From NCBI GenBank assembly GCA_002068415.1, contig MVZM01000004.1, positions 3,445 to 67,444 of the forward strand: 64,000 bases of DNA, given 5' to 3'. The stretch is from Tenericutes bacterium ADurb.BinA124 (GTDB lineage: Bacteria; Bacillota_I; Bacilli_A; ML615J-28; CAG-698). The position numbers and the translations under genes were made by a program. Position 1 is the stretch's first letter. Each line of letters begins with the position of its first letter. The notes beneath the pieces are model-generated. The model was given only the letters and a program-made list of their open reading frames with translations. It was not told where the DNA came from and did no database searches. Of this stretch, positions 1-14,661 are shown piece after piece.

Positions 1-806
1 ACTGTTATTCCAAGTGATGGATTTGCTTTCTTCCAAACCTTAGGATCCGTCCAATCATCATCTACATCTGCTCCATAAATAACTGGATAAAATGTAGGAT
101 CAATCTTTCTTCCTTCAAGTAAGTCCTTAGCCTTTTGGTGTGTTTCATAGCAGATAGATTTAGTATCAGTTCCAGCTGTTGTAATGTAAAAGTATAAAGG
201 TTGCATTCTTGCATCACCTGAACCTTTAGTCATAACATCAAAAAGTTTTCTATTAGGTTGAGTGTGAAGCTCATCAAAAACAACTCCATGAATATTAAAT
301 CCATGTTTTGAATAAGCTTCAGCCGATAGAACCTGATAAAAACTATTAGTTGGAAGAAATACAATTCTTTTTGTAGCAGCTAGTATCTTGCACCTTTTAT
401 TAAGTGCAGGACACATCCTAATCATGTCGGCAGCCACTTCAAAGACAATCGATGCTTGTTGCCTATCAGCAGCACATCCATATATTTCTGCTCTTTCTTC
501 ACCATCGCCACAAAGTAAATATAAAGCAATTGCAGCTGCTAGTTCGGATTTACCTTGTTTCTTAGGTATTTCAACATAAGCATAATTAAACTGCCTATAA
601 CCATTTGGTTTAATGATTCCAAACAAATCTCTTATTATTTGTTCTTGCCAATCTATAAGTTCAAAAGGCTCTCCTGCCCATGTACCCTTTGTATGACATA
701 GACATTCAATAAAGCTAACAGCATAATCTGCTTTTGTTTTATCGTATTTGGAGTCTTTAGCCTTGAACTTAGTTGGCACATATTTTTTAAGTTTTCTCAA
801 TTCCAT
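1..806 (-). CDS. terL: Phage terminase large subunit (Terminase_1/HK97-like), N-terminal part; the gene runs off the left edge
   Basis: Own translation from the ATG at 806..804, with GGAGGT just upstream: MELRKLKKYVPTKFKAKDSKYDKTKADYAVSFIECLCHTKGTWAGEPFELIDWQEQIIRDLFG...EIPKKQGKSELAAAIALY (Walker A-like)...GVVFDELH (Walker B)...WTDPKVWKKANPSLG. It is absent from the ORF track because it has no stop in the window. Confidence 0.85.
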   Translation of the reverse strand, partial: MELRKLKKYVPTKFKAKDSKYDKTKADYAVSFIECLCHTKGTWAGEPFELIDWQEQIIRDLFGIIKPNGYRQFNYAYVEIPKKQGKSELAAAIALYLLCGDGEERAEIYGCAADRQQASIVFEVAADMIRMCPALNKRCKILAATKRIVFLPTNSFYQVLSAEAYSKHGFNIHGVVFDELHTQPNRKLFDVMTKGSGDARMQPLYFYITTAGTDTKSICYETHQKAKDLLEGRKIDPTFYPVIYGADVDDDWTDPKVWKKANPSLGIT

Positions 807-820
807 TACCTCCATTTACC

Positions 821-850
821 AAAGAAAAAGGACTCCGAATTTGGAATCCT
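821..850 (-). terminator. Intrinsic terminator-like hairpin between the Zn-ribbon gene and terL
   Basis: Minus strand reads aGGATTCCaaattcGGAGTCCtttttcttt. This is a 7-bp stem (one G.U pair) followed by a T-run. Confidence 0.55.
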
Positions 851-875
851 CAAACTATATTTTAGTCTTCAATTT

Positions 876-1079
876 TCATTTATCTTCAACATTTGGAATT
901 TGTGCGATTATTTTATCAATCTCGGACTGTTCTAGCCCTAGCCCTTCTAAAGCCTCACGTGTGCCACACAAAGGGCAAATTGGCGTTATATTATCCTCCC
1001 TTGAAATCGCAGGGTGACCCCTATATTCCTTACCACACTTTGGACACTTCTTTACTACAACATTCTCGTTATTTGCCAT
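876..1079 (-). CDS. Small zinc-ribbon protein (67 aa), function unknown
   Basis: Two CxxC pairs (CPKCG ... CPLCG). Its ATG directly abuts the stop of the upstream GGCT gene (TAGATG). Confidence 0.6.
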   Translation of the reverse strand: MANNENVVVKKCPKCGKEYRGHPAISREDNITPICPLCGTREALEGLGLEQSEIDKIIAQIPNVEDK

Positions 1080-1535
1080 CTACTTGACCTCCTTAAAACT
1101 AATCTTTAGTGCATCTTCTAAATGCTTTATATCAAAACCAAAATTCCTATATCCTTCAAGACATGTCTGAACATAGGCTTTACTTGGAATTCCTATTGTT
1201 CTTTCTTCATGCATAATGTAAATGAATGCTTTTGAATGAACCTTTAATCCTCTAAATGAGGTGAATTCAATTTCTAACTCTTTCTTATAGTAAAAACTAG
1301 GATATCCTTCATATCTATCAAGCGATAATTCATCGCTATCATCAACCTTCCAGACACCAATTGGCACAACCTTTCCTTTATGCTTTTCGACTGTTAAATA
1401 AGAACCGCTTTTACTTCCCTTAAATAAAAGTTCGTAATCTTTAAGTTCAAATCTTCCAACTGGTATCGCCTTAGGACATCTATATTTCATTTGCTCTACA
1501 TTGAGGTTAGAACCATATGCTAGATAATATTTCAT
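1080..1535 (-). CDS. Gamma-glutamylcyclotransferase-fold (GGCT/AIG2-like) protein
   Basis: N-terminal YGSNL signature (MKYYLAYGSNLNVEQMKYRCP) and an LDRYEGYP motif with the family's conserved Glu. Its start overlaps the amidoligase stop (TAATG). Confidence 0.75.
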   Translation of the reverse strand: MKYYLAYGSNLNVEQMKYRCPKAIPVGRFELKDYELLFKGSKSGSYLTVEKHKGKVVPIGVWKVDDSDELSLDRYEGYPSFYYKKELEIEFTSFRGLKVHSKAFIYIMHEERTIGIPSKAYVQTCLEGYRNFGFDIKHLEDALKISFKEVK

Positions 1536-2494
1536 TATGCTGCACCTCCAACTTGTGGTCTAACTCCACTTCTAAATGATGCATCACCACTTAGTCGTTT
1601 TGTTAAGAACTCTCTTGCAGTTGCAAATTCCTCACCAATGAACCCAAGTCTAAGTAGCCATGTTCTCATTGCGTATTTAGGGTTTTCGTGTTGTTGAGGT
1701 TTGCTAGATGCTCCTCTAACTTCTTTTGCCATCTCGCTTAAGGCTAAGCATAATTGAATGTAGCTTTTAAGTTGTCCAGCATGAAGTCCATTTTGCTTTC
1801 CATCTTTTGGTGCATCGAATTGGAATAATCTAAATTCAATTGTTCCTTTTGTAAAAGTCGCATGGAAGTTAAGCATATGGTATCTTGAGTCGTTGTAATG
1901 TTGGCTCCTTCCATAATCGCAATGTTGACTCTTGTACCAAACGTCTGCGAATGCACTCATTGTTTGAGGCTTTCTTTTATTTACTTGGCTTAAGAAGTTA
2001 GGGTCAACTGTTTTACAATAACGGTTCAATCTACCTCTATCAAGTTCTAAGGCTTCTGCAAGCAAGTTTTCGTGGCTTGCCATAATGTTTGCTAGGTTTC
2101 TCATCGTTCTTGGTGTGTGTCCGTTTGCTCCAATGTGAATGTGAACTCCACAACCTCTTGTTGCATCTGACTTAGCACCATTCTTTCTTAAGATTCTAAT
2201 AATCTCTTGTAAAGTTTCAATATCATCGTATTTTAGGATTGGTGTTACAAGTTCACATTTTTCATCTTCTGGTCCAGCAATTGAGCAGTCCCTTTGGAAT
2301 TTCCAAACCCTACCTTGTGGGTCTTTACAAGCCCAGGTCATGTAACCATATTCGCTTGCTGCATTCCAAGCTTGTGTTCCAAAGAATGATGCTATAAGGC
2401 TTGCAGCTTTCTTTCTTGTGATGTTGTTCATCTCAACCTCAACACCTATTGTTTGTTCCTTCATGTTTTGAATTTGTTTTTCAGTGTTTTTCAT
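1535..2494 (-). CDS. Glutamine-synthetase-like amidoligase (Amidoligase_2-type COOH-NH2 ligase)
   Basis: 319 aa with the motif string GVEVEM...CELVTP...CGVHIHIG...SRYHMLNFH...TIEFRLF...MRTWLLRLG. I recognise this from memory as the phage/ICE amidoligase family; it is not verified by a search. Confidence 0.7.
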   Translation of the reverse strand: MKNTEKQIQNMKEQTIGVEVEMNNITRKKAASLIASFFGTQAWNAASEYGYMTWACKDPQGRVWKFQRDCSIAGPEDEKCELVTPILKYDDIETLQEIIRILRKNGAKSDATRGCGVHIHIGANGHTPRTMRNLANIMASHENLLAEALELDRGRLNRYCKTVDPNFLSQVNKRKPQTMSAFADVWYKSQHCDYGRSQHYNDSRYHMLNFHATFTKGTIEFRLFQFDAPKDGKQNGLHAGQLKSYIQLCLALSEMAKEVRGASSKPQQHENPKYAMRTWLLRLGFIGEEFATAREFLTKRLSGDASFRSGVRPQVGGAA

Positions 2495-2527
2495 GTTCTA
2501 ATCCTCGACTTTCTTTTCTTTTGTCGT

Positions 2528-2570
2528 GTATATATATCACTCTAAAACACTTATATATCAAGTCATTTAG
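2528..2570 (-). promoter_or_regulatory. Copy A of a repeated 43-bp promoter-like element, upstream of the amidoligase cassette
   Basis: Minus strand reads CTAAATGACTTGATATATAAGTGTTTTAGAGTGATATATATAC. It has a TTGATA -35-like box and a TG-n-TATATA -10-like box. It is about 80% identical to copy B at 3199..3242. Confidence 0.5.
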
Positions 2571-2607
2571 TGTATATTTTTAAATATATTTTATATATTT
2601 AAAGTGG

Positions 2608-2982
2608 CTAATATTCAGTATCCAAACAATAGGTTTTACCAGCATTTATTTGATGTATGATATTCTCATATCTTTCTCTTTCTGCACCTTCACTTGAACT
2701 TGCAGCTTCAAAATAGAAATCCAAGGCTTCACGCTTTGAATCAAAGAGTTTTTCTTGCCCATAACAAATTGTTTTTATGACATCAATCTTCTTAACTTTA
2801 TCAACACCATCAACAACATTTAATGAACTACCGTTATCCCAGGAAACAAGTATTGAACCAATATCATCAACACCTACTACTGTTCCCTTTGTTCCAATAG
2901 GTGGTGCTTGAACATCATCCATTTTAAGAAGCTTGACTCTAGATCCAATTGGATACTTCTTTAAAAGTTCATCCTTTCTCAT
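2608..2982 (-). CDS. DUF4314-domain protein
   Basis: The N-terminal segment YPIGSRVKLLKMDDVQAPPIGTKGTVVGVDDIGSILVSWDNGSSLNV matches my memory of the DUF4314 module common on phages and conjugative elements. Confidence 0.6.
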   Translation of the reverse strand: MRKDELLKKYPIGSRVKLLKMDDVQAPPIGTKGTVVGVDDIGSILVSWDNGSSLNVVDGVDKVKKIDVIKTICYGQEKLFDSKREALDFYFEAASSSEGAERERYENIIHQINAGKTYCLDTEY

Positions 2983-3179
2983 AATTCCTTACCATCCTTA
3001 CCTAAAAATTTAATTTTTCTAATTGTTCCTTTATGGAATAAGCTAATAGCATAATTAACCGCTTTTTCTTCTGACCAGCCAAGTGACTTAATGTAATAAT
3101 CTACTAGCTTTTCCATACCTTCTTTTGAAGTCTCAGTTTCTTCACAAATCTTATAAAGTTTTTCTCTTAATTCACTCAT
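2979..3179 (-). CDS. Hypothetical small protein (66 aa from the internal ATG)
   Basis: The ORF track gives 2979..3248. The ATG at 3179 (MSELREKLYK...) has a GGAGGTG RBS upstream. The longer N-terminus would cover promoter-like copy B. Confidence 0.5.
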   Translation of the reverse strand: MSELREKLYKICEETETSKEGMEKLVDYYIKSLGWSEEKAVNYAISLFHKGTIRKIKFLGKDGKEL

Positions 3180-3198
3180 TTTGCACCTCCAAAATTCA

Positions 3199-3242
3199 CA
3201 TATATACATCACTCTAAAAGCAAAATATATCAAGTGATTTGG
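3199..3242 (-). promoter_or_regulatory. Copy B of the repeated promoter-like element, upstream of the 66-aa/DUF4314 cassette
   Basis: Shares ATCACTCTAAAA and ATATATCAAGT(C/G)ATTT blocks with copy A, at the same spacing. Confidence 0.5.
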
Positions 3243-3248
3243 CCACAT

Positions 3249-4493
3249 TTATTCGAGGTTTTTAACCAAATCTTTATAAGGTATTTGTTCACCATTCCTA
3301 ATGCAATAAACACCATCTTCGTCATGAGTGTTATCTACATATCTACGCAATATTACTGACGCATATTTTTCATCAAGTTCCATCGTGTAGCAGATTCTAT
3401 TTGTTAACTCGCAAGCCATCAAAGTTGAACCACTACCACCAAATGTATCGATTACTATTGCGTTTTCTTGAGAACTGTTTTGAAGAGGATATGAAAGTAA
3501 ATCTAATGGTTTAGATGTTGGATGGTTTTCATTTCTCTTTGGCTTTTTAAAGTTCCATATAGTGGTTTGCTTTCTATCTGAATACCAACTGTGCTTACCA
3601 TTTTTTAAGAAACCATATAAAACAGGCTCATGTTGCCATTGATAATCGCTTCTTCCAAGAACTAAAGAATCCTTAACCCAAATGCAACATCCTGCAAGAT
3701 GGAATCCTGCATCAATGAATGCGGTTCTAAAATTAAGTCCTTCAGTATCAGCGTGGAAACAATAAGCTGACGCACCAGGTTCAGCATGTGCAACCATATT
3801 CTTAAATGCAGCAAGTAAGAACTGATAAAATTCTTCATTTTTAATGGAGTCATTTTGAATTGTAAGACCGCTAGACGACTTAAAAGATACACCATAAGGT
3901 GGATCAGTTAGGATCAAGTTTGCTCTCTTACCATCCATCAATCTATTAACATCATCAGGATTAGTAGCATCACCACAAACAAGACGGTGTCTACCAACAA
4001 CCCATATATCGCCTTTTTCAACGAACGATGCTTTTTCTAAAGCAGCTGTTAAATCATAATCATCATCTTCTACTTCAGTTTTTTCGCCTTTAAACAAATC
4101 CGTTAATTCATCTTCGTCAAATCCAGTCAATGAAAGGTCGAATGCCTCAGCTTCCAAAGCTTCTAATTCAACTTTTAAAAGTTCTTCATTCCATCCTGCA
4201 TCAAGAGCCATCCTATTATCAGCAATAATGTAAGCTTTCTTTTGTGCCTCAGTTAGATGTTCAACAAAAACACAAGGCACTTCGGTTAAGTGTTCAGCTT
4301 TTGCAGCTTCAACTCTTCCATGCCCTGCAATAATATTAAAATCTTTATCAACGATTACTGGATTTACAAAACCAAATTCACGTAGGCTTGCTCTTAACTT
4401 ATTTATTTGTTCAGGCGAGTGTGTACGTGCATTATTGATATAAGGGATTAATTTATTGATATCAACTAATTCAAATTTAGACGTTGTCTTCAT
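3249..4493 (-). CDS. ParB-like nuclease domain fused to an N6/N4 DNA methyltransferase
   Basis: N-terminal ParB-type motif (IIAGHGRVEAAK). Methyltransferase motifs ILTDPPYGV and DTFGGSGSTL. The likely ATG at 4493 overlaps the stop of the upstream gene (TAATG). Confidence 0.85.
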   Translation of the reverse strand: MKTTSKFELVDINKLIPYINNARTHSPEQINKLRASLREFGFVNPVIVDKDFNIIAGHGRVEAAKAEHLTEVPCVFVEHLTEAQKKAYIIADNRMALDAGWNEELLKVELEALEAEAFDLSLTGFDEDELTDLFKGEKTEVEDDDYDLTAALEKASFVEKGDIWVVGRHRLVCGDATNPDDVNRLMDGKRANLILTDPPYGVSFKSSSGLTIQNDSIKNEEFYQFLLAAFKNMVAHAEPGASAYCFHADTEGLNFRTAFIDAGFHLAGCCIWVKDSLVLGRSDYQWQHEPVLYGFLKNGKHSWYSDRKQTTIWNFKKPKRNENHPTSKPLDLLSYPLQNSSQENAIVIDTFGGSGSTLMACELTNRICYTMELDEKYASVILRRYVDNTHDEDGVYCIRNGEQIPYKDLVKNLE

Positions 4494-5275
4494 TAAAATA
4501 ACCCCCATTCAGCAAATTTCTCGAAACCACCTAAGTCGTGAATGAACTCACGTGCAATTTCTACTATTTCTTCATAAGGTCTATTGTCTATGTATTCATC
4601 TCCAATAGCACATGAAAGCTCGACAACTTGATTAGTAGCTTGTGCTTTTAAGAAACAATAAATATTGACAGACACGTCTGCCTTAGATAGATCCTTGCCA
4701 TGCAATCCACCACCAGTTACTGAATCAGCCATATCAGAACCAAGCTTTCTATTGGTAGCACCTGTATCTACATCAGTTCCTCCTGTCCATTCACCTAAAG
4801 GATTAATAATTGCTTTAGGAAATAATCTATGTAGTTCATAGTTTTTGGCATTGCTTTGGCAAATTACCAATTTTTCATTATCAAGAATGTATTTTCCATC
4901 ACTATGGAATCTGCTATAAAGATTTCTTGCAATTGTCGATAAACTTTTTTGTTCCTTAGTAAGTGGCACTCCTTTAAAGATGCCATTGTCCCCACATCTT
5001 ATTTTTTCTTCTTGGTTATCAGCTAGGTGCTTATCTTGAGGGACTTCAGTGTAATCTACATAAACTTTACCCGCGATTCTTCTTACAATATGGATCACAT
5101 CTTTTTTATCTAGATACACACTAGTTTCTGCAATCACATGACATTTGCCGTGTCCGATTAGAACTTCCACTGCAATTCTTGGATTTTTTTGATTTTTATA
5201 TGCTAAATCTACAATAGCACCTGCTATTCTATCTGCAATTTTATCTGGATGTTTTGGATTTACTTTTTCAAACAT
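4493..5275 (-). CDS. Truncated S-adenosylmethionine synthetase (MetK) homologue, 260 aa
   Basis: HPDKIADRIAGAIVD aligns to E. coli MetK HPDKIADQISDAVLD. GDNGI aligns to GDQGL. INPLGEWTGG...TNRK...GGGLHGKDLSKADVS aligns to INPTGRFVIGG...TGRK...GGGAFSGKDPSKVDRS. SCAIGDEY aligns to SYAIGVAEP. Confidence 0.75.
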   Translation of the reverse strand: MFEKVNPKHPDKIADRIAGAIVDLAYKNQKNPRIAVEVLIGHGKCHVIAETSVYLDKKDVIHIVRRIAGKVYVDYTEVPQDKHLADNQEEKIRCGDNGIFKGVPLTKEQKSLSTIARNLYSRFHSDGKYILDNEKLVICQSNAKNYELHRLFPKAIINPLGEWTGGTDVDTGATNRKLGSDMADSVTGGGLHGKDLSKADVSVNIYCFLKAQATNQVVELSCAIGDEYIDNRPYEEIVEIAREFIHDLGGFEKFAEWGLF

Positions 5276-6506
5276 TTTCTATAATCTCCTTTAAATTTTT
5301 AAATATTTCAGTTAGGCAATTAACAACGATGGAATTGCCTGCCATTTTATATAGTTGTGTATCCGATACGCCTGTCTTAAAGGCTCTATTGATATCTTCA
5401 TCACACCATCCCATCAAGCGAAAACACTCACGTGGAGTGAGGCGTCTTATGGAAATCAAATTATTTATATCTTTAGTAACAACTGCTACATCGTTAGGAC
5501 TAGTCTTAAGAGTTGGAATCTTATCTTTTTGAACCACACCACGTTTGTATTGAACTCGGTTGGTATAAATTCCATCTCCTTCTTTGGCAAGAGCATAACC
5601 TTTCTTTGTAGCTTCAGGGACAATGATTAAATTATCCTTTTGAACTGTAGTGATTGTGTTTGTATTTCCATCATCTTTTAGTTCTAGATGTTGCTTAATC
5701 TTTCCATCACTTTCATATCTTCCTCTTAGTGCAGCAGGGATTGGTTCAATAATGTAATTATCAGTAGGTCTACTTCCTGCATGAGTTGTAATTGTCCAGG
5801 CATAATCTTCGTCTTTGCCTTTAGGCCTAAACCTAAGCCCACGAATTAGACCGTTACGATTTTTCATGTCAGTAAAACAATCAATGAGCTTATTGGATAA
5901 AAAGTATTTTTCATCAACTTCATCTTCAAGTAAGTCACGAAGTTTAACCTTCAATTCTTGCTTTTCAGGAAACTTGAAATCGCCCTCATAATTAAGGATT
6001 GAAATCATAAAGCAACGTTCCCTGTTTTGAGGAACACCATAATCTTTAGCGTTGAGCACTTGATAAAAGTTCTTATATCCAAGCTCGGTTAAGAAATCCA
6101 ACCATTCTTGAAATTTTGGCATGAATTTTTTTGATATGATGTTCTTCACATTTTCCATTAAAAGGAATCTTGGTAGTTCGTTATTATCACGTGCAACTTC
6201 AAGCAATCTTTGAACTTCCCATAATAGAGATGATCCGGTATTTGAACCTTTATCAAAGCCTTTCATTCTTCCGCTGATTGAAATATCAGTGCATGGGAAT
6301 GAATAGGTAATCAAATCAGCATTAGGTAATCTTTGAATTGTTTTTATATCACCAAGATTTATCTTTTCACCATGCAATGCTTCATAAACTTTATTTGCGT
6401 AAGAATCAATATCACTTGTAGCAACGATTCTATGCTTTATTTCTGCCTCCTTTAATGCTTGTTCCTGAGCACCAATACCAGAAAATAGTTCTATGACTCT
6501 TAACAT
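5268..6506 (-). CDS. DNA (cytosine-5)-methyltransferase
   Basis: Motif I ELFSGIGA, motif IV FPCTDIS, motif VI MENV, motif VIII QNRER, motif X GNSIVV. The ATG at 6506 is preferred (GGAGG 7 nt upstream) over the track start at 6527. Confidence 0.9.
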   Translation of the reverse strand: MLRVIELFSGIGAQEQALKEAEIKHRIVATSDIDSYANKVYEALHGEKINLGDIKTIQRLPNADLITYSFPCTDISISGRMKGFDKGSNTGSSLLWEVQRLLEVARDNNELPRFLLMENVKNIISKKFMPKFQEWLDFLTELGYKNFYQVLNAKDYGVPQNRERCFMISILNYEGDFKFPEKQELKVKLRDLLEDEVDEKYFLSNKLIDCFTDMKNRNGLIRGLRFRPKGKDEDYAWTITTHAGSRPTDNYIIEPIPAALRGRYESDGKIKQHLELKDDGNTNTITTVQKDNLIIVPEATKKGYALAKEGDGIYTNRVQYKRGVVQKDKIPTLKTSPNDVAVVTKDINNLISIRRLTPRECFRLMGWCDEDINRAFKTGVSDTQLYKMAGNSIVVNCLTEIFKNLKEIIENV

Positions 6507-6525
6507 GTGCATTCCTCCTTCCATC

Positions 6526-6550
6526 AAAAAAGGCCACCCAATTGAGTGAC
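6526..6550 (-). terminator. Intrinsic terminator-like hairpin directly downstream of terS
   Basis: Minus strand reads GGTCACtcaattgGTGGCCttttt. Confidence 0.5.
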
Positions 6551-6579
6551 CTATGTGTATTTTTATAAATGTATGATCT

Positions 6580-7128
6580 TTATGTTTTTCTTGCTTTAAG
6601 CAAACGCTCCATTAAATCGTCCTGTGGATTAGCACCACCATAACCTACCGATGAGTTTTCTTTTACTACTTGGAATATCTGAAACCACACTTGATTTACT
6701 TGTTTCATAAAAGATTGGCTCATAGAAACATATGGACTCGCTATTGCGTTACCAGTTGTAGGATGTTTTGCAAGAAAACCGAATTCAGATATTGCTTCTT
6801 CGCACTGAATCCAACGAGAGACTGACATTGCATACTGTTCAAGCAATTGTGGACTTACTAATTTTTCACAGCCTTTATCCCTCAACCACTGCCATGTTTC
6901 TTTATAAACTTCTTCAGCGACTAAGTCTTTGCCGTTTTTTTGTTTTGCTTTTAAGTATTCCTTTACTGGTGGCATATCATCACCTATAAACTCAGCTGGT
7001 TCAGGAAGTAAAGTATCAAATTTTGCCTTTGATTTTGTTTTGCCTTCATTGATTTTTTCAATTAAAGGTTTTGATTTTCTACCACTTCCAGGACGATATC
7101 CACCTCGATTTGTACCATCTTTAGCCAT
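6580..7128 (-). CDS. terS: Phage terminase small subunit (P27-family-like)
   Basis: 182 aa with a basic N-terminus (GGYRPGSGRKSKP). The central pattern LVSPQLLEQYAMSVSRWIQCEEAISEFGF...GNAIASPYVSM is typical of P27-type TerS. The gene sits downstream of an HNH gene. Confidence 0.75.
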   Translation of the reverse strand: MAKDGTNRGGYRPGSGRKSKPLIEKINEGKTKSKAKFDTLLPEPAEFIGDDMPPVKEYLKAKQKNGKDLVAEEVYKETWQWLRDKGCEKLVSPQLLEQYAMSVSRWIQCEEAISEFGFLAKHPTTGNAIASPYVSMSQSFMKQVNQVWFQIFQVVKENSSVGYGGANPQDDLMERLLKARKT

Positions 7129-7210
7129 AGGCTAATACCTCCTTGTTTGATTTTTTGGTTAATACCCCGTTTGAAAAAAGATTTTTACACACGAGACCCA
7201 GGGCCGATTT

Positions 7211-7753
7211 TCAAGATAAAAAGTCCTGGAGATAGAGAGGGCCCACCCCTATATCTTTTTTCCATGTTTCGTATCTTAATATATCGCTAACATGTCTTTG
7301 CGTTATTGAGAACATTGTGGCTATTTCTTTTTGTGAGCATCCATCATCTCTAAGCCAACGAATAGTATTTATGGATTTATTATTTAATTTTGACTTTATA
7401 TGATTTTCGCCATGTCGTAAAGCTGCTAAGGTTCCATGTCTAATTTGATCTTGCATATTTTCTTGGTGAGTACCCCACTTTAGGTTTTCCAAACGATTAT
7501 CGTGACAATTTCCATTTAGATGTCTACATTCCATTCCTTCAGGTTTTGGACCAACAAAAGCTAACAAAACACAAGTGTGAACGTTTAATTGTTTATCTTT
7601 TGCAGGCACACTATCATCACGAAGGTTAACTCTTAAATATCCCTTAGTATCTAATCTTTGTGGTTTCAATCTTAACTCTCCACTTCTATCTGAATATATT
7701 AGCCCATCTTCTGTCGCATATTGTCCAGGAAATCCAGGTATTTCTTTTAACAT
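7211..7753 (-). CDS. Free-standing HNH homing-type endonuclease (NUMOD4-like N-terminus, HNH_3 core, C-terminal HTH)
   Basis: IPGFPGQYATEDGLIYS (NUMOD4-like). HLNGNCHDNRLENLKWGTHQENMQD (HNH_3). CSQKEIATMFSITQRHVSDI (HTH). The ATG at 7753 (AGGTGA RBS) is preferred over the track start at 7768. Confidence 0.75.
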   Translation of the reverse strand: MLKEIPGFPGQYATEDGLIYSDRSGELRLKPQRLDTKGYLRVNLRDDSVPAKDKQLNVHTCVLLAFVGPKPEGMECRHLNGNCHDNRLENLKWGTHQENMQDQIRHGTLAALRHGENHIKSKLNNKSINTIRWLRDDGCSQKEIATMFSITQRHVSDILRYETWKKDIGVGPLYLQDFLS

Positions 7754-7761
7754 GTTTTCAC

Positions 7762-8130
7762 CTACCATTCGTGTGGATGTCTATCACCAAGTTCGATATG
7801 AATTTTATTGTGGCAACTCTTACAAACGCTCATAAGGTTTGAATCTTCATTCCCACCACCACGATTAACTGGTAAGATGTGATGAACTTCATCCATTGGA
7901 GTAATTCTTCCTTCTTTTAAGCAACGTTCACACAAAGGATGTTCTTTAGCATATCTATCACGGATTCTTTTCCAAGCACGACCATACTTTTTATTATGAT
8001 CAGACGAACGAGAATATCGATTGTATTCTTTTGCAACAAGTCCCTTATGCTCTTCGCAGTAACTACCTTCAGTAAGATTAGGACATCCTGGATATTTACA
8101 TGGTTTTAATGGTTTATGTGGCATATCCAT
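7762..8130 (-). CDS. Phage packaging-associated HNH endonuclease
   Basis: CERCLKEGRITPMDEVHHILPVNRGGGNEDSNLMSVCKSCHNKIH, a classical HNH core with flanking Cys pairs. Confidence 0.85.
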   Translation of the reverse strand: MDMPHKPLKPCKYPGCPNLTEGSYCEEHKGLVAKEYNRYSRSSDHNKKYGRAWKRIRDRYAKEHPLCERCLKEGRITPMDEVHHILPVNRGGGNEDSNLMSVCKSCHNKIHIELGDRHPHEW

Positions 8131-8149
8131 TTCCTCCTTTTACTGCAAT

Positions 8150-8198
8150 AAAAAAAGCCCATAGGATTGCTCCAAATGGACTATTATTCTCTATGGCT
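8150..8198 (-). terminator. Leader hairpin plus T7 run between a promoter-like site and the HNH/terS genes
   Basis: Minus strand reads AGCCATAG-(26 nt)-CTATGGGCTTTTTTT. Confidence 0.45.
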
Positions 8199-8206
8199 TT
8201 CGCCCA

Positions 8207-8215
8207 ATTATATCA
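8207..8215 (-). promoter_or_regulatory. Extended -10 promoter-like element (TGaTATAAT) for the packaging operon
   Basis: Minus strand reads TGATATAAT immediately downstream of the regulator gene. Confidence 0.4.
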
Positions 8216-8254
8216 TATCACACTATTGACAAAGACACCATTGGACACGCTTGG

Positions 8255-8671
8255 TCACACCTGGTCAATTTTTATTAGCTCTATAGCTTGGTCGTGTTTC
8301 CTTCTAACTGTCTTATCCGAATAATAAACTTTAGCGGCTATTTCGCTCCAAGTAAGCCAATCTATGTAACGATAAGTTAGAATCATTTGTAAGTCTTCAT
8401 CCTTAACTGTGTTGATTGCTTTTTCAATCTCCATTCTTACAAGACCAGCTTTCTTTTCTAATTCTTCCAACTCTTCTTCGGCTTCAATGCCTTTATAGAT
8501 CCACCTTACAAATGGAGCTTCATAACTTGGACTAGGATTATTGATTCTTTCACCATAACAAGGACCGGGAATGGATGAGGCTCTTTCATTACAAAAGTCG
8601 ATGTATTGCTTTTTCTTTTCTATCTTTTCCAAGATATTATGATATCTACATAAATAAGTCTTCTTATCCAT
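8255..8671 (-). CDS. Phage late transcriptional regulator with a sigma-70 region-4-like HTH (ArpU/RinA/DUF1492-like)
   Basis: C-terminal LTWSEIAAKVYYSDKTVRRKHDQAIELI. The gene lies immediately upstream of the packaging genes. Confidence 0.6.
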   Translation of the reverse strand: MDKKTYLCRYHNILEKIEKKKQYIDFCNERASSIPGPCYGERINNPSPSYEAPFVRWIYKGIEAEEELEELEKKAGLVRMEIEKAINTVKDEDLQMILTYRYIDWLTWSEIAAKVYYSDKTVRRKHDQAIELIKIDQV

Positions 8672-8674
8672 ATC

Positions 8675-10042
8675 CTACACCTCCGCTTTTACTGCTTTTA
8701 ATAATGCATTTTGTCGTGTTGCCTTTCCGTGAATTACATCAAGTACATCTTCATCGATAGTTCCTTTTGAAATAATGTGAATCACTATTACACTTTCTGC
8801 CTTTTGACCTTGCCTGTATAATCTCGCATTGGTTTGCTCATAGAGTTCCAAACTCCAAGTTAAGCCAAACCATACGATTACATTTCCACCACTTTGAAGA
8901 TTAAGACCATGCCCAGCTGATGCAGGATGAATTAAACCAACATTAAGTTTTCCTTCATTCCATTTTCTAATTGCATCATCTTTATCAAGGCATCCATAAT
9001 TGACTCCAAGTGAATCTAATCTTTCTTTGATTCTTTCCAAATCATGTTTGAACCAATATGCCACTAACATTGGTTTTCCGTTCGATGCTTCAATCAAATC
9101 TTCTAAAGCATCTAGTTTTGCATCGTGGATCTTAAATGTTGATCCATTATCTATGTATAAAGCACCATTAGAAACTTGGAGTAATTTATTAGTTAGTACA
9201 GCTGCATTTGCTACTGTTATCTCTTCATCTTTATCCTTTAGTTCTTGAATGAAATCATCTTGAAGATTCCTATAAACCTCTATTGCATTATCAGGCATTT
9301 CAACTTCATGATTTCGATAGATTAACTTTGGCATCTTAAGATAATCTTCTGCTTTCATTGACATCGTGATATCAGAAATCTTGTGATAGATAACCTTGTC
9401 AGCACCTGGAATTAGCTTATACGAATACACAATTTCGCCATTCCTCTTATCAGGGATAAAGTACTTATTACGATAATGAGTTATAAATCTTTCAAGCCTT
9501 ACACCATAATCAAGCAATTTGAATTCGGCCCATAAATCCATTAGACCATTTCCTGAAGGTGTACCAGTTAGACCTACTATTCTTTTGGCTAAAGGTCTTA
9601 CTTTAAGTAAACTTTTAAATCTTACTGATTTTCCATTCTTGAAACTTGATAATTCATCAATAACAATCATGTCATAATCGAACTTATAACCACTTTTATC
9701 GATTAGCCACTGAACATTCTCACGGTTGATAATGTAGATGTCGGCTTTTTCATCAAGTGCCTTTTTCCTTTGTACTTCAGTTCCAACTACAACCGAGTAT
9801 TTAAGAAAATTCAAATGTTCCCATTTTTCAATTTCGCTAGGCCATGTAAACTTTGCAACTCTTAGTGGAGCAATAACCAAAACCTTATGAACATCAAATG
9901 AATCAAAGAGTAAATCAAATAATGCAGATAAAGTTATAACTGTTTTACCTAAACCCATTGAAAGAAAGACTGCACTTGCTTGTTTTTCTTCAATAAAATT
10001 AGTTGCATATTTTTGATAATCATAAGGTTCGTATTTCATCAA
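8675..10042 (-). CDS. SNF2-family helicase/ATPase
   Basis: Walker A LSMGLGKT, DExx box VIDELSSF, motif III LTGTP, C-terminal helicase motifs (QTNARLYRQGQ). Confidence 0.9.
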   Translation of the reverse strand: MMKYEPYDYQKYATNFIEEKQASAVFLSMGLGKTVITLSALFDLLFDSFDVHKVLVIAPLRVAKFTWPSEIEKWEHLNFLKYSVVVGTEVQRKKALDEKADIYIINRENVQWLIDKSGYKFDYDMIVIDELSSFKNGKSVRFKSLLKVRPLAKRIVGLTGTPSGNGLMDLWAEFKLLDYGVRLERFITHYRNKYFIPDKRNGEIVYSYKLIPGADKVIYHKISDITMSMKAEDYLKMPKLIYRNHEVEMPDNAIEVYRNLQDDFIQELKDKDEEITVANAAVLTNKLLQVSNGALYIDNGSTFKIHDAKLDALEDLIEASNGKPMLVAYWFKHDLERIKERLDSLGVNYGCLDKDDAIRKWNEGKLNVGLIHPASAGHGLNLQSGGNVIVWFGLTWSLELYEQTNARLYRQGQKAESVIVIHIISKGTIDEDVLDVIHGKATRQNALLKAVKAEV

Positions 10043-10301
10043 TTATTCCTCCTATTTGTTCCTCATCGTCAAGGACATAAACCCTAAACCCCATCTTCCT
10101 TAACATCTCATGTCTTTTGACTTGTAGTTTTCTTGGTTTCTTACCTTTAGCTTTGACTTCGACAAACGCCATATGACCGATTGCTATAAGAATCAATCTA
10201 TCAGGCATCCCATCAAAGCCAGGACTTACAAACTTCAAGGCAATACCACCATTCTTTTTAACTTCTTTACAAAGTTTCTGCTCAATCTTTTTCTCTTCCA
10301 T
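10020..10301 (-). CDS. VRR-NUC domain nuclease
   Basis: GMPDRLIL...AFVEVKAKGKKPRKLQ pattern (PD-(D/E)xK). Confidence 0.8.
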   Translation of the reverse strand: MEEKKIEQKLCKEVKKNGGIALKFVSPGFDGMPDRLILIAIGHMAFVEVKAKGKKPRKLQVKRHEMLRKMGFRVYVLDDEEQIGGIIDEIRTL

Positions 10302-10435
10302 AACAACCTCCTATGACATGGTCTACTTAGTCGATATACAACTTTTTCTATATAGGTTTTTTTGGCCATTTTTTGCTATATGCAATAGTTTGTATTTAGA
10401 CTATGTAGACTATGTCGTTTTGGCTTTTTTCCTTA

Positions 10436-12700: not shown

Positions 12701-12717
12701 ATATTAAATCCTCCGTA

Positions 12718-14661
12718 TTAATCTTTTTTGTAGAAGCTGCATTCATAGCCCTCGGCATTAAGAATTAAGCCATTAGCCCATGAAGGAACCTCACTCATTT
12801 TCTTAGACACGTCTTCGACCTTTAAATCGAGTGGTGCATCTATTACCACTTCATCATGAATATGCATAACTATCGGTAGATCTAGATTCTTCATCGCATA
12901 CACAAGTAAATCTCTAGCTGTTGCTTGAACGATGTTTTCAACAAACTTTGGACCGTAAGATTCTAATCGTTCCCATTTCTTTGCTTGAGACAAACCCATA
13001 TAAGTGATTTGCCCATCAACAACTTTAGGCATTGAATAAGCAAGCCTTCTTCCACTTGGAAGAGTGATGAAAAGAGTCCCACCAAGATATGCGAATTCTA
13101 AATTCTTAAACTTAACTGTTGTTTTATTTTCAATAGCCTTGATGACTGCTTTATCAACATCCCACCAAAACTTAGTAATATTTGGGTTTGCTACTCTCCA
13201 TGATTCAACAAGCGGCTTTAATTCATCTTCTTTAAGCCCCATCTCAATTGCACCCATAGCTTTAAGTGCTCCTACTGATCCACCATAGCCAAGTGCAAGT
13301 TCTGCAATCTTTCCTTTAGGTCGTAGTTCACCATTGACTCCGTGTTTTACTACAGGTACATGGAACATTTGTGATGCAGATGCACAATATATGTCTTCAC
13401 CATTTTTGAAAGCATTTAATCGCCACGTCTCTCCTGCATACCAAGCAATAACACGTGCTTCAATAGCAGAGAAATCAGATACAATAAACTTATGTCCTTT
13501 TGAAGGGATAAAGGCAGTACGAATTAACTGCGATAATGTATCAGGCACATCTTCATATAGGATTTCAACAGCATCAAGGTTTCCACCTCTCACAAGAGCC
13601 CTTGCTTCAGCTAAATCTTTGAGATGGTTTTGTGGTAAGTTTTGTAGCTGCACTATCTTTGAAGAGAACCTTCCTGTACGATTAGCTCCATAAAACATAA
13701 ACATTCCATGAACCTTGCCATCACTACATCTAGCACTTTTCATTGCAAGATATTTTTTGATTGAAGATTTGGATACTTGTTGGCGTAGCAATAATACTTG
13801 TTGCACCACTTTGTCATCAGCATAGCCTATAAGGTTAGCTACCTCTTTTTTACCTAAAGTTTCAACTTCTACATCATTTTCAAAGAGCCAACTTTTAAGC
13901 TGTGCCACAGAGTTTGGATTATCTAATTTAGTTAGGTTTTGAAGGGTTTTTATATTGAAATCCCTAGTTTTTTCATCAAAGTCGATAGCATTATCAACTA
14001 GAGTTTCATCTACTAAAACACCTCTATCATTTATAGTTTCTGATAGGTGATATTCATCCCAAACAAAATCAGGAACAGGGTACTTACTAATACGTTCTTG
14101 AATAGCCATTTCAGTTTCAACATCACGGATATTGTATTTCTTAAACAACTCCCACTTTTCTTTATCGTGGTAGTAATAGTTACGAGTCCTATATCCATTC
14201 TTGCTTGTTGGTCTACATGGAACACAAAAGTACTTAATTAGATCCTTACCTTCATTTAGTTTTTGCTTATCAAGTCTTAATATTTCACCTACTTGTTTTA
14301 ATGAAAAAGCGAGTCCTAAATAAGCACTCCAAGTCATGGTGCATCTCCAAGAATCAGGCGATAGATATTTTCCTTTTTCTATTCCAAGATGCCTTGATAA
14401 ACACACTCTTTCAAATGTTGAATTATATGCGTACTTTATTACATCATCACTTTTAATGGCATCAACCAGGAATCCTGGAAGTGGCTCACCTTGTGCTAGG
14501 TCAACCACCTCCACTTTTCCGTTGTTTATTGCATACGATAATAGTAATATTTCAAAATCGTTGGATTCGGCATATTTGTATACGCCACACTTGTTTAAGT
14601 CTGTGCTTGAGTAGGTTTCAATATCAAGATGTAATGACTTAATCAAGGAATCCATCATCAT
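12718..14661 (-). CDS. Family-A DNA polymerase with a 3'-5' exonuclease domain
   Basis: ExoI LHLDIETYS. Pol motif A FIVSDFSAIEARV. Motif B KGKIAELALGYGGS. Motif C VMHIHDEVV. The start is ambiguous (three consecutive ATGs at 14655..14661; the track uses GTG at 14676). Confidence 0.9.
   Translation of the reverse strand: MMMDSLIKSLHLDIETYSSTDLNKCGVYKYAESNDFEILLLSYAINNGKVEVVDLAQGEPLPGFLVDAIKSDDVIKYAYNSTFERVCLSRHLGIEKGKYLSPDSWRCTMTWSAYLGLAFSLKQVGEILRLDKQKLNEGKDLIKYFCVPCRPTSKNGYRTRNYYYHDKEKWELFKKYNIRDVETEMAIQERISKYPVPDFVWDEYHLSETINDRGVLVDETLVDNAIDFDEKTRDFNIKTLQNLTKLDNPNSVAQLKSWLFENDVEVETLGKKEVANLIGYADDKVVQQVLLLRQQVSKSSIKKYLAMKSARCSDGKVHGMFMFYGANRTGRFSSKIVQLQNLPQNHLKDLAEARALVRGGNLDAVEILYEDVPDTLSQLIRTAFIPSKGHKFIVSDFSAIEARVIAWYAGETWRLNAFKNGEDIYCASASQMFHVPVVKHGVNGELRPKGKIAELALGYGGSVGALKAMGAIEMGLKEDELKPLVESWRVANPNITKFWWDVDKAVIKAIENKTTVKFKNLEFAYLGGTLFITLPSGRRLAYSMPKVVDGQITYMGLSQAKKWERLESYGPKFVENIVQATARDLLVYAMKNLDLPIVMHIHDEVVIDAPLDLKVEDVSKKMSEVPSWANGLILNAEGYECSFYKKD

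Follow-up and report, generated by a model that had tools for sequence, protein, structure and literature searches.

Enzymes that attach a γ-glutamyl group to an amine are paired in several pathways with an enzyme that takes it off again: BtrJ with BtrG in butirosin synthesis, EgtA with EgtC in the ergothioneine pathway, and a glutamine synthetase (GS)-like ligase with a hydrolase in the γ-glutamylation of putrescine (PuuA/PuuD) or of arylamines. Ligation by GS, γ-glutamylcysteine synthetase (γ-GCS), PuuA, PafA and YbdK proceeds through an acyl phosphate. All enzymes of the γ-glutamylcyclotransferase (GGCT) fold known to us (GGCT, GGACT, ChaC, BtrG and GliK) remove a γ-glutamyl residue that carries a free α-amine. 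For phages, a neighbourhood combining Amidoligase_2 with AIG2/GGCT was predicted computationally by Iyer, Abhiman, Burroughs and Aravind in 2009, according to the accounts given in PMC11318856 and PMC10580990. A 2023 paper on such genes states that their functions “remain to be explored”, and the searchable literature reports neither a substrate nor a phenotype for the pair, as a first-pass annotation of the present locus had claimed. The amidoligase–GGCT gene pair is very common in human-gut phages.

The locus described here carries this pair within the first kilobases of the window, that is, the whole 64-kb stretch of DNA that was analyzed. Its features are as follows.

1..800, minus strand: start of the terminase large subunit (TerL) gene, the downstream boundary of the cassette; identified by translation and running off the window
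828..851, minus strand: predicted intrinsic terminator ending the cassette (terminator scan: 9 pairs, then TTTCTTT)
876..1079, minus strand: small zinc-ribbon protein of 67 aa, CxxC…CxxC, with two C-terminal helices (phrog_2945)
1080..1535, minus strand: γ-glutamylcyclotransferase-fold enzyme of 151 aa (PF06094, phrog_2520, alignment with human GGCT)
1535..2494, minus strand: Amidoligase_2 enzyme of 319 aa, full-length; predicted carboxylate-amine ligase with a glutamine-synthetase / γ-glutamylcysteine-ligase / YbdK / PafA-type fold
2526..2570, minus strand: promoter-like element before the amidoligase gene, AATGACTTGATAT-N9-TTTAGAGTGATATATATACACGAC, readable as TTGATA-17-GATATA
2608..2982, minus strand: DUF4314 protein of 124 aa, SH3-like domain with a C-terminal extension (PF14192)
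3200..3236, minus strand: second promoter-like copy found by regex scan, CACTTGATATATTTTGCTTTTAGAGTGATGTATATATGTG followed by GGAGGTG and ATG, before a small ORF and the DUF4314 gene

What this locus shares with the neighbourhood of Iyer et al. is the adjacency of the two enzyme families on phages or mobile elements of Firmicutes; it is indeed an instance of that neighbourhood, and the cassette is a typical member of a predicted kind known since 2009. Added here, on the grounds of synteny and gene fusions, are the phrog_2945 zinc ribbon and DUF4314, together with a conserved promoter-like motif, a terminator and a constant location in the terS-terL slot of Ca. Heliusvirales, an order of phages reported to be widespread in the human gut (PMC11283538). 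A different version occurs in LUZ24-like and tf Pseudomonas phages, in phiEco32 and in Arthrobacter Laroyevirus, where Amidoligase_2 accompanies a class-II glutamine amidotransferase, with or without an ATP-grasp enzyme and with or without GGCT. The pairing of ligase and amidotransferase is also part of the Pfam description of PF12224. Both versions have the same ligase family and catalytic residues, and in the Arthrobacter phages GGCT likewise adjoins the ligase. The proteobacterial and actinobacterial version differs in that its ligase is only 23-27% identical, its genes lie in an early or replication region, a glutamine amidotransferase is present, and zinc ribbon and DUF4314 were not detected; neither of the latter two was detected beside the pair in Arthrobacter, Bacillus and Porphyromonas phages.

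The ORF list and the sequence confirmed three minus-strand open reading frames (1535..2494, 1080..1535 and 876..1079). Base 1535 is common to the amidoligase stop and the GGCT start (TAATG), the GGCT stop codon TAG directly abuts the ATG of the zinc-ribbon gene (1080/1079), and each gene is preceded by a Shine-Dalgarno sequence (GAGGA, GGAGG and AGGAGG, respectively). The junctions from which translational coupling had been proposed are therefore real, but coupling is not a conserved trait, because the intergenic gaps vary among relatives from an overlap up to about 290 nt.

Upstream from the amidoligase gene, the promoter-like element annotated at 2528..2570 was not called by a sigma-70 consensus scan, although it contains a strongly conserved motif. 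The 21-mer TTTAGAGTGATATATATACAC (2546..2526) is unique in the window, where 0 occurrences are expected by chance, and its 19-mer core recurs ahead of the amidoligase start in 34 of 89 loci, set in flanking DNA that is otherwise divergent. Two of these 34 loci (L052 and L068) have a second copy of the core after the zinc ribbon, and variants of the motif precede other cassettes inserted before TerL. Conservation of the element points to a promoter at 2526..2570. An Rfam search of positions 1..20000 identified no known RNA family at this site. At the other end, the intrinsic terminator expected in front of terL was matched by the terminator scan at 851..828. Its T-run (827..821) stops 7 nt short of the Shine-Dalgarno sequence of TerL (813..809), and the 61-nt stretch from 875 to 815 has a minimum free energy of -15.6 kcal/mol (z = -2.4). 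Where TerL follows directly in relatives, a hairpin and T-run occupy this position too, with stems that differ in sequence. TerL itself is 92% identical to that of Ca. Heliusvirales phage NatCom_34063; its start is most likely TTG 800 rather than a codon further upstream, judging from the TTG or GTG starts that follow GGAGG in relatives. With a conserved promoter-like element on one side and a terminator before terL on the other, the description of the cassette as self-contained holds, and its layout resembles that of a moron-like unit.

The 319-aa product of 1535..2494 matches PF12224 (Amidoligase_2) over positions 1-244 of the 245-position profile (E=5e-54, 184 bits, cut-off 22) and belongs to phrog_2443 (E 1.7e-111). 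The best PDB matches of its AF2 model (pLDDT 84, pTM 0.86) in Foldseek are YbdK (1r8g/1tt4), GshF (3ln7), plant γ-glutamylcysteine ligase (GCL, 2gwc), Dop (9cku) and GS, the top five having probability 1.0 with TM-scores of only 0.40-0.45; a GS that γ-glutamylates 1-naphthylamine is also among the structural relatives. Residues E19, E21, E81, H118, H120, E220 and R222 do not vary among 45 homologues, and the catalytic set (ExE, HxH, ExR) is retained down to 23% identity. As these motifs are conserved and sit on predicted strands of the model (E19/E21, E81, H118/H120 and E220/R222), they were mapped onto the GS active site as the likely metal, ATP and acyl-phosphate residues, an equivalence of motifs and strands rather than a residue-level superposition. 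Sequence and profile searches against the PDB found no sequence relative of the amidoligase. The full-length profile match, the fold matches and the intact catalytic residues bear out the assignment of this gene to the GS-like amidoligases. Matches of 1.3-1.4 kb in some loci raised the prospect of an intron or intein, which was rejected since the additional match comes from a distinct short amidoligase-like paralogue located upstream. The “amidoligase” of a 2026 paper on Klebsiella fimbriae is an unrelated ATP-grasp enzyme.

The second gene was said to encode a protein of the γ-glutamylcyclotransferase fold, and this assignment stood: the product matches PF06094 (GGACT/AIG2; E=2.9e-11, 44.4 bits, cut-off 22.8) and phrog_2520 (E 1.3e-48), and its closest PDB sequence relative is human GGCT (2pn7/2i5t, E=2.5e-6). 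Its YGSNL (residues 7-11) aligns with YGSNL of the human enzyme and its LDRYE76G with human LDEQEG, both motifs being invariant across 58 homologues. The human LDEQEG segment holds the catalytic glutamate, Glu98, whose counterpart here is Glu76.

These affinities lend weight to one alternative to the model developed below, a small-molecule γ-glutamyl cycle serving auxiliary metabolism or host takeover. A free amine or amino acid (e.g., polyamine, cysteine or ammonia) would be γ-glutamylated and then split by GGCT, with zinc ribbon and DUF4314 acting as enzyme regulators; the outcome would be either a loss of ATP and glutamate to 5-oxoproline or the buffering or detoxification of an amine. The nearest structural relatives of the ligase (YbdK, γ-GCS and GS) are small-molecule enzymes, and human GGCT, nearest in sequence to the phage protein, acts on free γ-glutamyl amino acids. 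In addition, some authors class such genes as nitrogen-related auxiliary metabolic genes, and the very strong conservation of the ligase in hosts ranging from Bacilli to Clostridia would fit a universal metabolite. We regard this cycle as possible, if doubtful, in view of the partner proteins considered next.

The third gene encodes, as annotated, a CxxC…CxxC zinc-ribbon protein. It belongs to phrog_2945 (E 6.8e-21), Pfam returned zinc-ribbon profiles below threshold only, and alignments define the signature CPxCG-x8-PAxSRxDNxTxICPxCGTREAL. A fold search with its AF2 model (pLDDT 81.5) found no significant analogue in the PDB, the best E-value being 1.8. The family is large (1124 representatives at E<=1e-10). 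In one protein (P0198) the zinc ribbon is combined with GGCT, and in four others (P0289, P0294, P0311 and P0215) with DUF4314. PADLOC returned one weak match for the zinc ribbon (E=2e-4, to a candidate model) and none of its defence models matched amidoligase, GGCT or DUF4314; NCBIfam has no model for these last three proteins.

A GS-fold ligase accompanied by a small accessory protein recalls pupylation (PafA/Dop/Pup) and the LysW system; Dop is among the structural matches of the amidoligase, and LysW is itself a zinc-ribbon protein, like the third cassette gene. The carriers Pup and LysW are ligated through a conserved C-terminal Glu or Gln, whereas the C-terminal tails of 51 zinc-ribbon and 42 DUF4314 sequences have neither a fixed sequence nor a fixed length. 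Because these tails are not conserved, a LysW- or Pup-type carrier role was rejected for both proteins. Pupylation differs also in its remover, a second GS-fold enzyme in place of GGCT.

DUF4314 (2608..2982; PF14192, E=1.3e-26) is encoded no more than 700 nt upstream from the amidoligase gene in 81 of 114 loci, whereas its place is after GGCT in L078-L081 and in Blautia phage NatCom_24097. Short non-catalytic amidoligase-like paralogues are also accompanied by DUF4314. Homology searches with the domain returned almost only stand-alone proteins of about 70 aa, an architecture without functional clue, and no paper in the searchable literature mentions it. Synteny, together with the GGCT/zinc-ribbon and DUF4314/zinc-ribbon fusions, makes DUF4314 probably a fourth member of the amidoligase module. 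The module thus appears to be larger than the three annotated genes, as it includes DUF4314. The same protein and a small ORF of about 66 aa (probable start ATG 3179), both located in the block around the cassette, contradict the view that this block is otherwise made solely of DNA-modification enzymes.

The partner proteins also speak against a small-molecule cycle. Enzymes of that type seldom need zinc-ribbon or SH3-like partners, which here are fused to GGCT and to each other; the cassette contains no transporter or further pathway enzyme; and a pure futile cycle would have no obvious benefit for a temperate phage. Butirosin synthesis offers a comparison of logic. The resemblance lies in an ATP-dependent γ-glutamyl addition to an amine followed by a dedicated remover (the butirosin system being BtrJ/BtrG with the carrier BtrI), with BtrG having the GGCT fold. 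BtrJ, unlike the phage ligase, is an ATP-grasp enzyme and not GS-like, and in this as in other γ-glutamylation pathways further enzymes transform the masked intermediate, none of which is found in the cassette.

The 130 related loci show an almost constant gene order, amidoligase–GGCT–zinc ribbon–TerL. Of 121 loci, 118 have GGCT no more than 500 nt downstream from the amidoligase; the zinc ribbon is within 1.5 kb in 103 of 113 loci and TerL within 6 kb in 66 of 70. The amidoligase has a median identity of 75%, compared with 85% for the N-terminus of TerL and 74% for the ParB-methylase; it appears to be under strong purifying selection, conserved like core phage genes. The hosts of the pair include Bacilli, Lachnospiraceae, Oscillospiraceae, Ruminococcus and Christensenellales. 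Predicted hosts include metagenome-assembled genomes (MAGs) labelled Mollicutes or Anaeroplasmatales, in which the block is 82% identical. The block is also present in genome records of C. clostridioforme AGR2157, Petralouisia muris NM01_1-7b, Ihubacter sp. rT4E-8 and Sporofaciens sp. SGI.106, and Faecalibacterium phage FP_Taranis carries a 37%-identical version. Beyond these, amidoligase and GGCT are paired in many unrelated phages: the association is seen in a clade with 45% ligase identity (Blautia phage NatCom_24097) and recurs at 23-27% in Bacillus phage 031MP002 and in Arthrobacter phage Salgado, where the order is GGCT-amidoligase-GATase.

Such constancy is difficult to reconcile with mere co-location of enzymes that act on unrelated substrates without any add/remove logic, and the recurrence of the pair with a ligase of 23-27% identity also weighs against this idea. 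So does the fact that, in proteobacterial phages, the partner of the ligase is a class-II glutamine amidotransferase, itself a candidate for γ-glutamyl cleavage. On the opposite side stand the non-conserved coupling, with gaps ranging from overlap to about 290 nt, one locus (L056) with no detectable GGCT, and the occurrence of the zinc ribbon alone elsewhere. In another phage type, a zinc ribbon with the full signature has no amidoligase, GGCT or DUF4314 within 5 kb; the zinc ribbon is thus not obligately tied to the enzymes, which weighs against the model of a four-protein module. Taken as a whole, co-location seems to us scarcely probable.

The model we favor, to which we give about an even chance of being right, is that of a conserved accessory operon whose ligase γ-glutamylates an amine, X-NH2, whose GGCT frees X-NH2, and whose zinc ribbon and DUF4314 target a macromolecule. 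With ATP, the amidoligase would convert free L-glutamate to an acyl phosphate at its γ-carboxylate and join the activated glutamate to the amino group of the target; GGCT would later release X-NH2 and 5-oxoproline. Glutamate is proposed as the carboxylate donor only from the nature of the GGCT partner, the substrates of Amidoligase_2 enzymes being unreported, and it would have to be free glutamate because GGCT requires a glutamyl residue whose α-amino group is free. Since GGCT yields the amine and 5-oxoproline, each round of addition and removal would cost one ATP and one glutamate. The γ-glutamyl group would then serve temporarily as a mask or tag paid for with ATP, and not as a reversible mark. 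In the “writer/eraser” logic previously attributed to the locus, “eraser” is accordingly a loose term, as the reaction of GGCT is not the reverse of the ligation. Zinc ribbon and DUF4314 would be non-catalytic adaptors that direct the enzymes to a macromolecule, either a protein or a component bound to nucleic acid, and most likely not to a free metabolite; a macromolecule is favored because the two proteins are found fused to GGCT and to each other. A counter-point to the model is that forming a bond and then splitting it amounts to a futile cycle, unless time, place or the state of the substrate keeps the two steps apart.

The operon occupies a cargo slot that Heliusvirales-type temperate phages of gut Firmicutes have between terS and terL. 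Here the cassette immediately precedes terL and shares the slot with a C5 methylase, a SAM-synthetase-like protein and a ParB-N6/N4 methylase (Pfam), and in related phages the slot can contain Nmad4 (“nucleotide modification associated domain”), for which a literature search found no characterizing paper. This setting is the source of the proposal that glutamate, or another carboxylate, is placed on a phage DNA base before packaging, within an anti-restriction block of methylases. Yet the slot is a general cargo hotspot, which in related phages also receives Fic/DOC, Schlafen-AlbA_2, HTH, DUF7698 and DUF7678 genes, and distant phages have the pair among early or replication genes, without a methylase close by. 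The link to DNA modification therefore stems from the genomic slot and not from the enzyme pair. Moreover, in a scan of the prophage ORFs of 1..19.2 kb, limited to the larger ORFs and to the half of the prophage inside the window (the structural half lies beyond it), no precursor or transfer enzyme of thymidine hypermodification, of 7-deazaguanine formation or of the Mom type was present (hydroxymethylase, 5-hmdU kinase/aGPT-Pplase, DpdA/QueC-E or Mom acyltransferase); the ORFs scanned encode only methylases, the SAM-synthetase-like protein, replication and packaging proteins, and unknowns. Unmodified bases have no carboxylate and their amines are only poorly nucleophilic. We know of no DNA hypermodification pathway in which a GGCT partner has a role, which counts further against this proposal. 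Of the targets suggested earlier (a DNA base, a virion or packaging protein, or a defence protein), a DNA base thus has nothing specific in its favor, and we consider it very improbable.

The moron-like layout, with its own promoter and terminator, would fit lysogenic conversion, and thereby the idea that the envelope or a peptidoglycan precursor is modified so as to block superinfection, as proposed for the phiEco32 amidoligase and credited to Iyer et al. 2009 in PMC11318856 and PMC10580990. A γ-linked glutamate does occur in peptidoglycan stem peptides, but D-isoglutamate of peptidoglycan has an acylated α-amine and cannot be cyclized by GGCT. Mollicutes and Anaeroplasmatales lineages are generally wall-less, and the block is found in MAGs bearing these labels. 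Finally, Pfam and PHROGs place amidoligase, GGCT and zinc ribbon in no envelope-related family. A role in the envelope is, in our opinion, improbable.

Returning to the favored model of a macromolecular target, a more specific form can be put forward, which we rate as rather unlikely in this detail: DUF4314, amidoligase, GGCT and zinc ribbon would constitute a phage system that tags and untags macromolecules, with γ-glutamate placed on the amine of a lysine, of an N-terminus or of a nucleic-acid-bound component. The zinc-ribbon and SH3-like proteins would guide the ligase to a conserved host or phage protein, and GGCT would strip the tag as 5-oxoproline.

Being conserved like core phage genes, this version of the pair probably is important in a very common virus-host interaction. 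The compactness of the four-gene locus, with its own putative promoter and terminator, and its presence in named strains and in FP_Taranis make the question directly testable. Identifying the substrate would give a function to thousands of phage genes and, if the target is a macromolecule, would reveal a new modification chemistry. Should the tagging scheme hold true, very common human-gut prophages would carry a new reversible, ATP-paid post-translational modification, which may be used in host takeover, counter-defence or packaging control.

The cassette consists of three genes on the minus strand:

2494..1535, minus strand: amidoligase, 319 aa, matching the whole Pfam Amidoligase_2 profile (E=5e-54, 184 bits vs a 22-bit cut-off)
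1535..1080, minus strand: γ-glutamylcyclotransferase (GGCT), 151 aa, GGACT/AIG2 family (E=2.9e-11)
1079..876, minus strand: zinc ribbon (CxxC…CxxC), 67 aa, PHROG 2945 (6.8e-21), with sub-threshold Pfam zinc-ribbon matches

The first-pass annotation had read 1535..2494 as a GS-like amidoligase, a placement borne out by the full-profile Pfam match and by fold comparison. The protein also matches PHROG 2443 (1.7e-111). No sequence relative was found in the PDB by single sequence or by profile. An AlphaFold2 model built from an alignment of 45 homologues is confident (pLDDT 84, pTM 0.86), and its best PDB matches are all GS-fold carboxylate-amine ligases: YbdK (1r8g, 1tt4), the γ-glutamylcysteine-ligase part of GshF (3ln7), plant and E. 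coli γ-GCS, the depupylase Dop and many glutamine synthetases, with probability 1.0 for the top ones and TM-scores of only ~0.4. Residues E19/E21, E81, H118/H120 and E220/R222, all on predicted β-strands, are invariant among the 45 homologues and, along with D69, R204 and N209, are retained in full-length amidoligases of Arthrobacter, Bacillus, Porphyromonas and Faecalibacterium phages, down to 23% identity. They represent the ExE, HxH and ExR motifs expected for the superfamily; their one-to-one mapping onto GS residues is inferred from strand position and conservation. The middle gene product, a match to PHROG 2520 "gamma-glutamyl cyclotransferase" (1.3e-48), aligns with human GGCT (E=2.5e-6), pairing YGSNL (7-11) with the human YGSNL and LDRYE76G with LDEQEG, the motif carrying the catalytic glutamate; both motifs are invariant among 58 homologues. 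The family match and this alignment confirm the GGCT fold assigned initially. Misplacement of the ligase or loss of catalytic residues had been named as observations that would speak against the cassette; since both proteins fall within their families with catalytic residues kept, neither was observed. Judging from these residues, both predicted enzymes look active.

Using the amidoligase as probe, we gathered 80 viral and 49 bacterial-genome loci. The neighbourhood census proposed in the first-pass annotation (130 loci, amidoligase identity ≥60%) placed GGCT ≤500 nt downstream of the amidoligase in 118/121 loci, the zinc ribbon within 1.5 kb in 103/113, a DUF4314 gene ≤700 nt upstream in 81/114 and TerL within 6 kb in 66/70. 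Median identity reached 75% in the amidoligase, and 56%, 60% and 59% in GGCT, zinc ribbon and DUF4314, respectively; set against the TerL N-terminus (85%) and the ParB-methylase (74%), the ligase is under roughly the constraint of core genes. The records name as hosts uncultured Bacilli/Mollicutes/Anaeroplasmatales, Lachnospiraceae, Ruminococcus, Oscillospiraceae and Christensenellales, and the block occurs in the named strain records C. clostridioforme AGR2157, Petralouisia muris NM01_1-7b, Ihubacter sp. rT4E-8 and Sporofaciens sp. SGI.106. Farther afield, a protein search returned at least 8000 amidoligase homologues, and tblastn matched 104 annotated phage records. Blautia phage NatCom_24097 (45% identity), from a second Heliusvirales clade, carries a short amidoligase-like paralogue, amidoligase, GGCT and DUF4314; Arthrobacter Laroyevirus phages (~24%) carry GGCT, amidoligase and a class-II glutamine amidotransferase beside genes for a helicase and an exonuclease; Bacillus phage 031MP002 (27%) has the ligase-GGCT pair among its early genes; and in Faecalibacterium phage Taranis (37%) the amidoligase is accompanied by two unassigned ORFs and a phrog_2945 zinc ribbon. 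Dozens of phage "amidoligases" of similar structure are found in BFVD; some are crAss-like or from giant viruses, and one is fused to a LIM zinc domain. The fact that ligase and GGCT remain paired in very distant phages argues for a common chemistry of the ligase and its γ-glutamyl-removing partner.

The zinc-ribbon gene was correctly recognized at the outset. Its family comprises 1124 members at E≤1e-10 when the profile is run against 1.84 billion representatives, most of them stand-alone (60-110 aa). Behind the invariant core, CPxCG…PAxSRxDNxTxICPxCGTREAL, come two helices, and the C-terminal tail varies. This variability excludes LysW- or Pup-like use of the protein, which would require a conserved glutamate at the C-terminus as the point of ligation. 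A fold search with the zinc-ribbon model gave no structural analogue. One family protein, P0164 (3179 aa), is made of ~38 tandem 83-residue repeats, each corresponding to the second half of the profile. Fusions are informative: P0198 joins GGCT (1-153) to a zinc ribbon (154-213), DUF4314 precedes the zinc ribbon in P0289, P0294 and P0311, and the order is reversed in P0215. These fusions, together with synteny, tie DUF4314 (2982..2608 in the window) to the module. In another phage type, a zinc ribbon bearing the complete signature has no amidoligase, GGCT or DUF4314 within 5 kb; the zinc ribbon is therefore not an obligate subunit of the module, and its presence in an unrelated phage region suggests that it may have a function of its own. 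This lone gene (5001-5249 in the related loci L142-L144, own numbering) adjoins RNA-ligase-like, metallophosphatase and HAD_SAK_2 genes.

The wider setting involves four further elements:

8671..8255, minus strand: sigma-70/RinA-like regulator
7128..6580, minus strand: terS, followed by a terminator
3236..3200, minus strand: second copy of the promoter-like element, preceding a small ORF and the DUF4314 gene
851..828, minus strand: intrinsic terminator, from a terminator scan

Minus-strand order is terS, terminator, C5 methylase, SAM-synthetase-like protein, ParB-N6/N4 methylase, small ORF, DUF4314, amidoligase, GGCT, zinc ribbon, terminator, TerL. At higher coordinates, upstream of the terS region, lie genes for an SNF2 helicase, a D5-type primase, a family-A DNA polymerase, an Enc34-type SSB and a DUF2800 nuclease. 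The remainder of the window is bacterial chromosome (RNase R, Lon, ClpX, trigger factor, NrdD, FeoB), which identifies the cassette-bearing region as a prophage. At its N-terminus, TerL shares 92% identity with the protein of Anaeroplasmataceae phage NatCom_34063 (Ca. Heliusvirales), whose gene order is the same. Heliusvirales have been reported as a widespread human-gut phage lineage whose commonest "auxiliary" genes are DNA methylases and SAM synthetase (PMC11283538). The SAM-synthetase-like protein here (4493..5275, minus strand, 260 aa) matches MetK in the N-terminal domain only (phrog_1569); in a Jeotgalibaca prophage (L145), its position is taken by a full three-domain MetK of 389 aa. 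An HNH-type endonuclease gene (8130..7762, minus strand) and a 185-aa ORF directly upstream of terS (7768..7211, minus strand; no NCBIfam assignment) form the usual HNH-terminase arrangement of related phages. Just past the replication genes lies an LlaJI-type restriction-modification cluster (19197..23972, minus strand) with RE_LlaJI endonuclease, AAA_5 McrB-like ATPase and C5 methylase.

Between zinc ribbon and TerL, relatives carry Fic/DOC, Schlafen-AlbA_2, DUF7698, DUF7678, Nmad4, an HTH protein or a displaced terS, which makes the terS-terL slot a cargo hotspot; the Fic/DOC, Schlafen-AlbA_2, DUF7698, DUF7678 and Nmad4 inserts mark it as one for conflict-type cargo. Examples are L036 (2833-6294) and the inserts in L038, L049, L056 and L059; Schlafen-AlbA_2 is paired with Fic-like_C. 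Given this mixed content, the DNA-modification neighbours reflect the cargo insertion site of the lineage and not a specific link of the enzyme pair to DNA, so that the context stressed initially was over-read. A DNA base as target has no specific support: no precursor-base enzyme occurs among the prophage ORFs scanned and, outside this lineage, the pair shows no link to methylases.

Base 1535 belongs both to the amidoligase stop and to the GGCT start (TAATG), the zinc-ribbon ATG directly abuts the GGCT stop TAG, and each gene has a separate Shine-Dalgarno sequence. The junctions are thus as first described, but coupling is not a conserved trait, gaps in relatives ranging from overlaps to about 290 nt. 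The terminator postulated ahead of terL is supported by the scan, by the folding of a 61-nt stretch (875..815; -15.6 kcal/mol, z = -2.4) and by position: relatives with TerL directly next have a hairpin and T-run at the same place with other stems (GGATTCC/GGAGTCC, GTCGGCT/GTCGGCT, GGTTCC/GGAGCC, among others). Its T-run (827..821) stops 7 nt before the TerL Shine-Dalgarno (GGAGG, 813..809; probable start, TTG 800), leaving no room for a promoter; terL must therefore be expressed through read-through or antitermination. Together with the second terminator after terS (6552..6531, minus strand), this leaves 5.7 kb of insulated cargo between terS and terL. The promoter proposed at 2528..2570 was not called by a sigma-70-type consensus scan, but the site coincides with a strongly conserved promoter-like element upstream of the amidoligase (2526..2570, minus strand), AATGACTTGATAT-N9-TTTAGAGTGATATATATACACGAC. 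Its 21-mer occurs once in the window (zero expected by chance), and the 19-mer core precedes the amidoligase start in 34/89 loci within otherwise diverged intergenic DNA. The element reads TTGATA-17-GATATA here and TGGATA/TTGCTA-17-TAATAT/GAATAT in relatives, with invariant TTTAGAG inside the spacer and ATACAC after it. Extra genes between zinc ribbon and TerL bear their own copy, and L052 (7723-7741) and L068 (4416-4434) have a second core after the zinc ribbon; the motif recurs ahead of successive cargo cassettes in the slot. It may be recognized by a phage factor, such as the sigma-70/RinA-like protein. Flanked by this element and the terminator, the cassette would be an autonomous unit with the layout of a phage "moron". 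The copy at 3236..3200 further indicates that an 89-aa ORF call (2979..3248, minus strand) extends too far: the match to relatives begins only at about residue 24, promoter copy and GGAGGTG stand ahead of ATG 3179, and the real start is probably this ATG, giving a ~66-aa product (MSELREKL…) that falls in no assigned family.

The same slot houses short amidoligase-like paralogues (193-254 aa; phrog_2443, no Pfam match), usually beside DUF4314. Positions in four related loci are:

L082, 4584-5234: short paralogue
L083, 4584-5234: short paralogue
L085, 5136-5900: short paralogue
L145, 5372-5953: short paralogue

In Streptococcus Javan phages, Gardnerella phage vB_Gva_AB1 and the Jeotgalibaca prophage, the paralogue is accompanied by DUF4314 plus another small protein: Javan102 has DUF5049 and Nmad4, the Jeotgalibaca prophage a 63-aa Cys-rich protein. 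In L072, L081, L114, L123, L130, L131 and L135 the paralogue lies upstream of a full amidoligase. The aligned ones (L082, L083, L085; Javan102, Gardnerella, Blautia) lack the catalytic Glu/His/Arg residues and may be pseudo-enzymes.

In GS-fold ligases, a carboxylate is activated as its acyl phosphate and then joined to an amine. To our knowledge, all characterised GGCT-fold enzymes (GGCT, GGACT, ChaC, BtrG, GliK) cleave a γ-glutamyl amide by way of its free α-amino group; the products are free amine and 5-oxoproline. By analogy, the simplest joint reading would be that the ligase puts γ-glutamyl on X-NH2, joining the γ-carboxylate of free L-glutamate to it, and that GGCT afterwards takes it off, setting X-NH2 free. 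Because every round spends ATP and a glutamate, this is no true writer/eraser pair, and the "eraser" logic suggested at first went too far. Among the closest functional analogies are the γ-glutamyl protective-group chemistry of butirosin BtrJ/BtrG, EgtA/EgtC of ergothioneine biosynthesis, and polyamine or arylamine γ-glutamylation pathways. Fusions of the non-catalytic partners, the zinc-ribbon and SH3-like proteins, with GGCT and with one another incline us towards a macromolecular target; a small-molecule γ-glutamyl cycle is almost equally likely. Action on the cell wall is doubtful, since GGCT cannot use the acylated D-isoglutamate of peptidoglycan and some predicted hosts come from lineages that are generally wall-less.

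The Pfam description of PF12224 presumably carries the same Amidoligase_2/AIG2-cyclotransferase pairing. That Amidoligase_2 and an AIG2-family cyclotransferase go together in Firmicutes elements was predicted computationally by Iyer et al. 2009, to judge from the passages citing it in PMC11318856 and PMC10580990, and was rightly credited to that work. No experimental substrate or phenotype for the pair was found in the searchable literature, as anticipated; recent genome papers only restate what was suggested in 2009 or class the genes as metabolic. Overall, gene identity and the missing substrate stand from the first-pass annotation; the eraser and the DNA-modification context do not. The locus is a typical instance of a published but uncharacterised neighbourhood, to which the present analysis adds a fusion-supported four-part module composition, a dedicated conserved promoter-like motif and terminator, a fixed location in the Heliusvirales terS-terL cargo slot, non-catalytic short paralogues and a list of named strain records with the block. 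No surprise to the specialist, it offers a compact, prevalent and tractable way into a question open since 2009.
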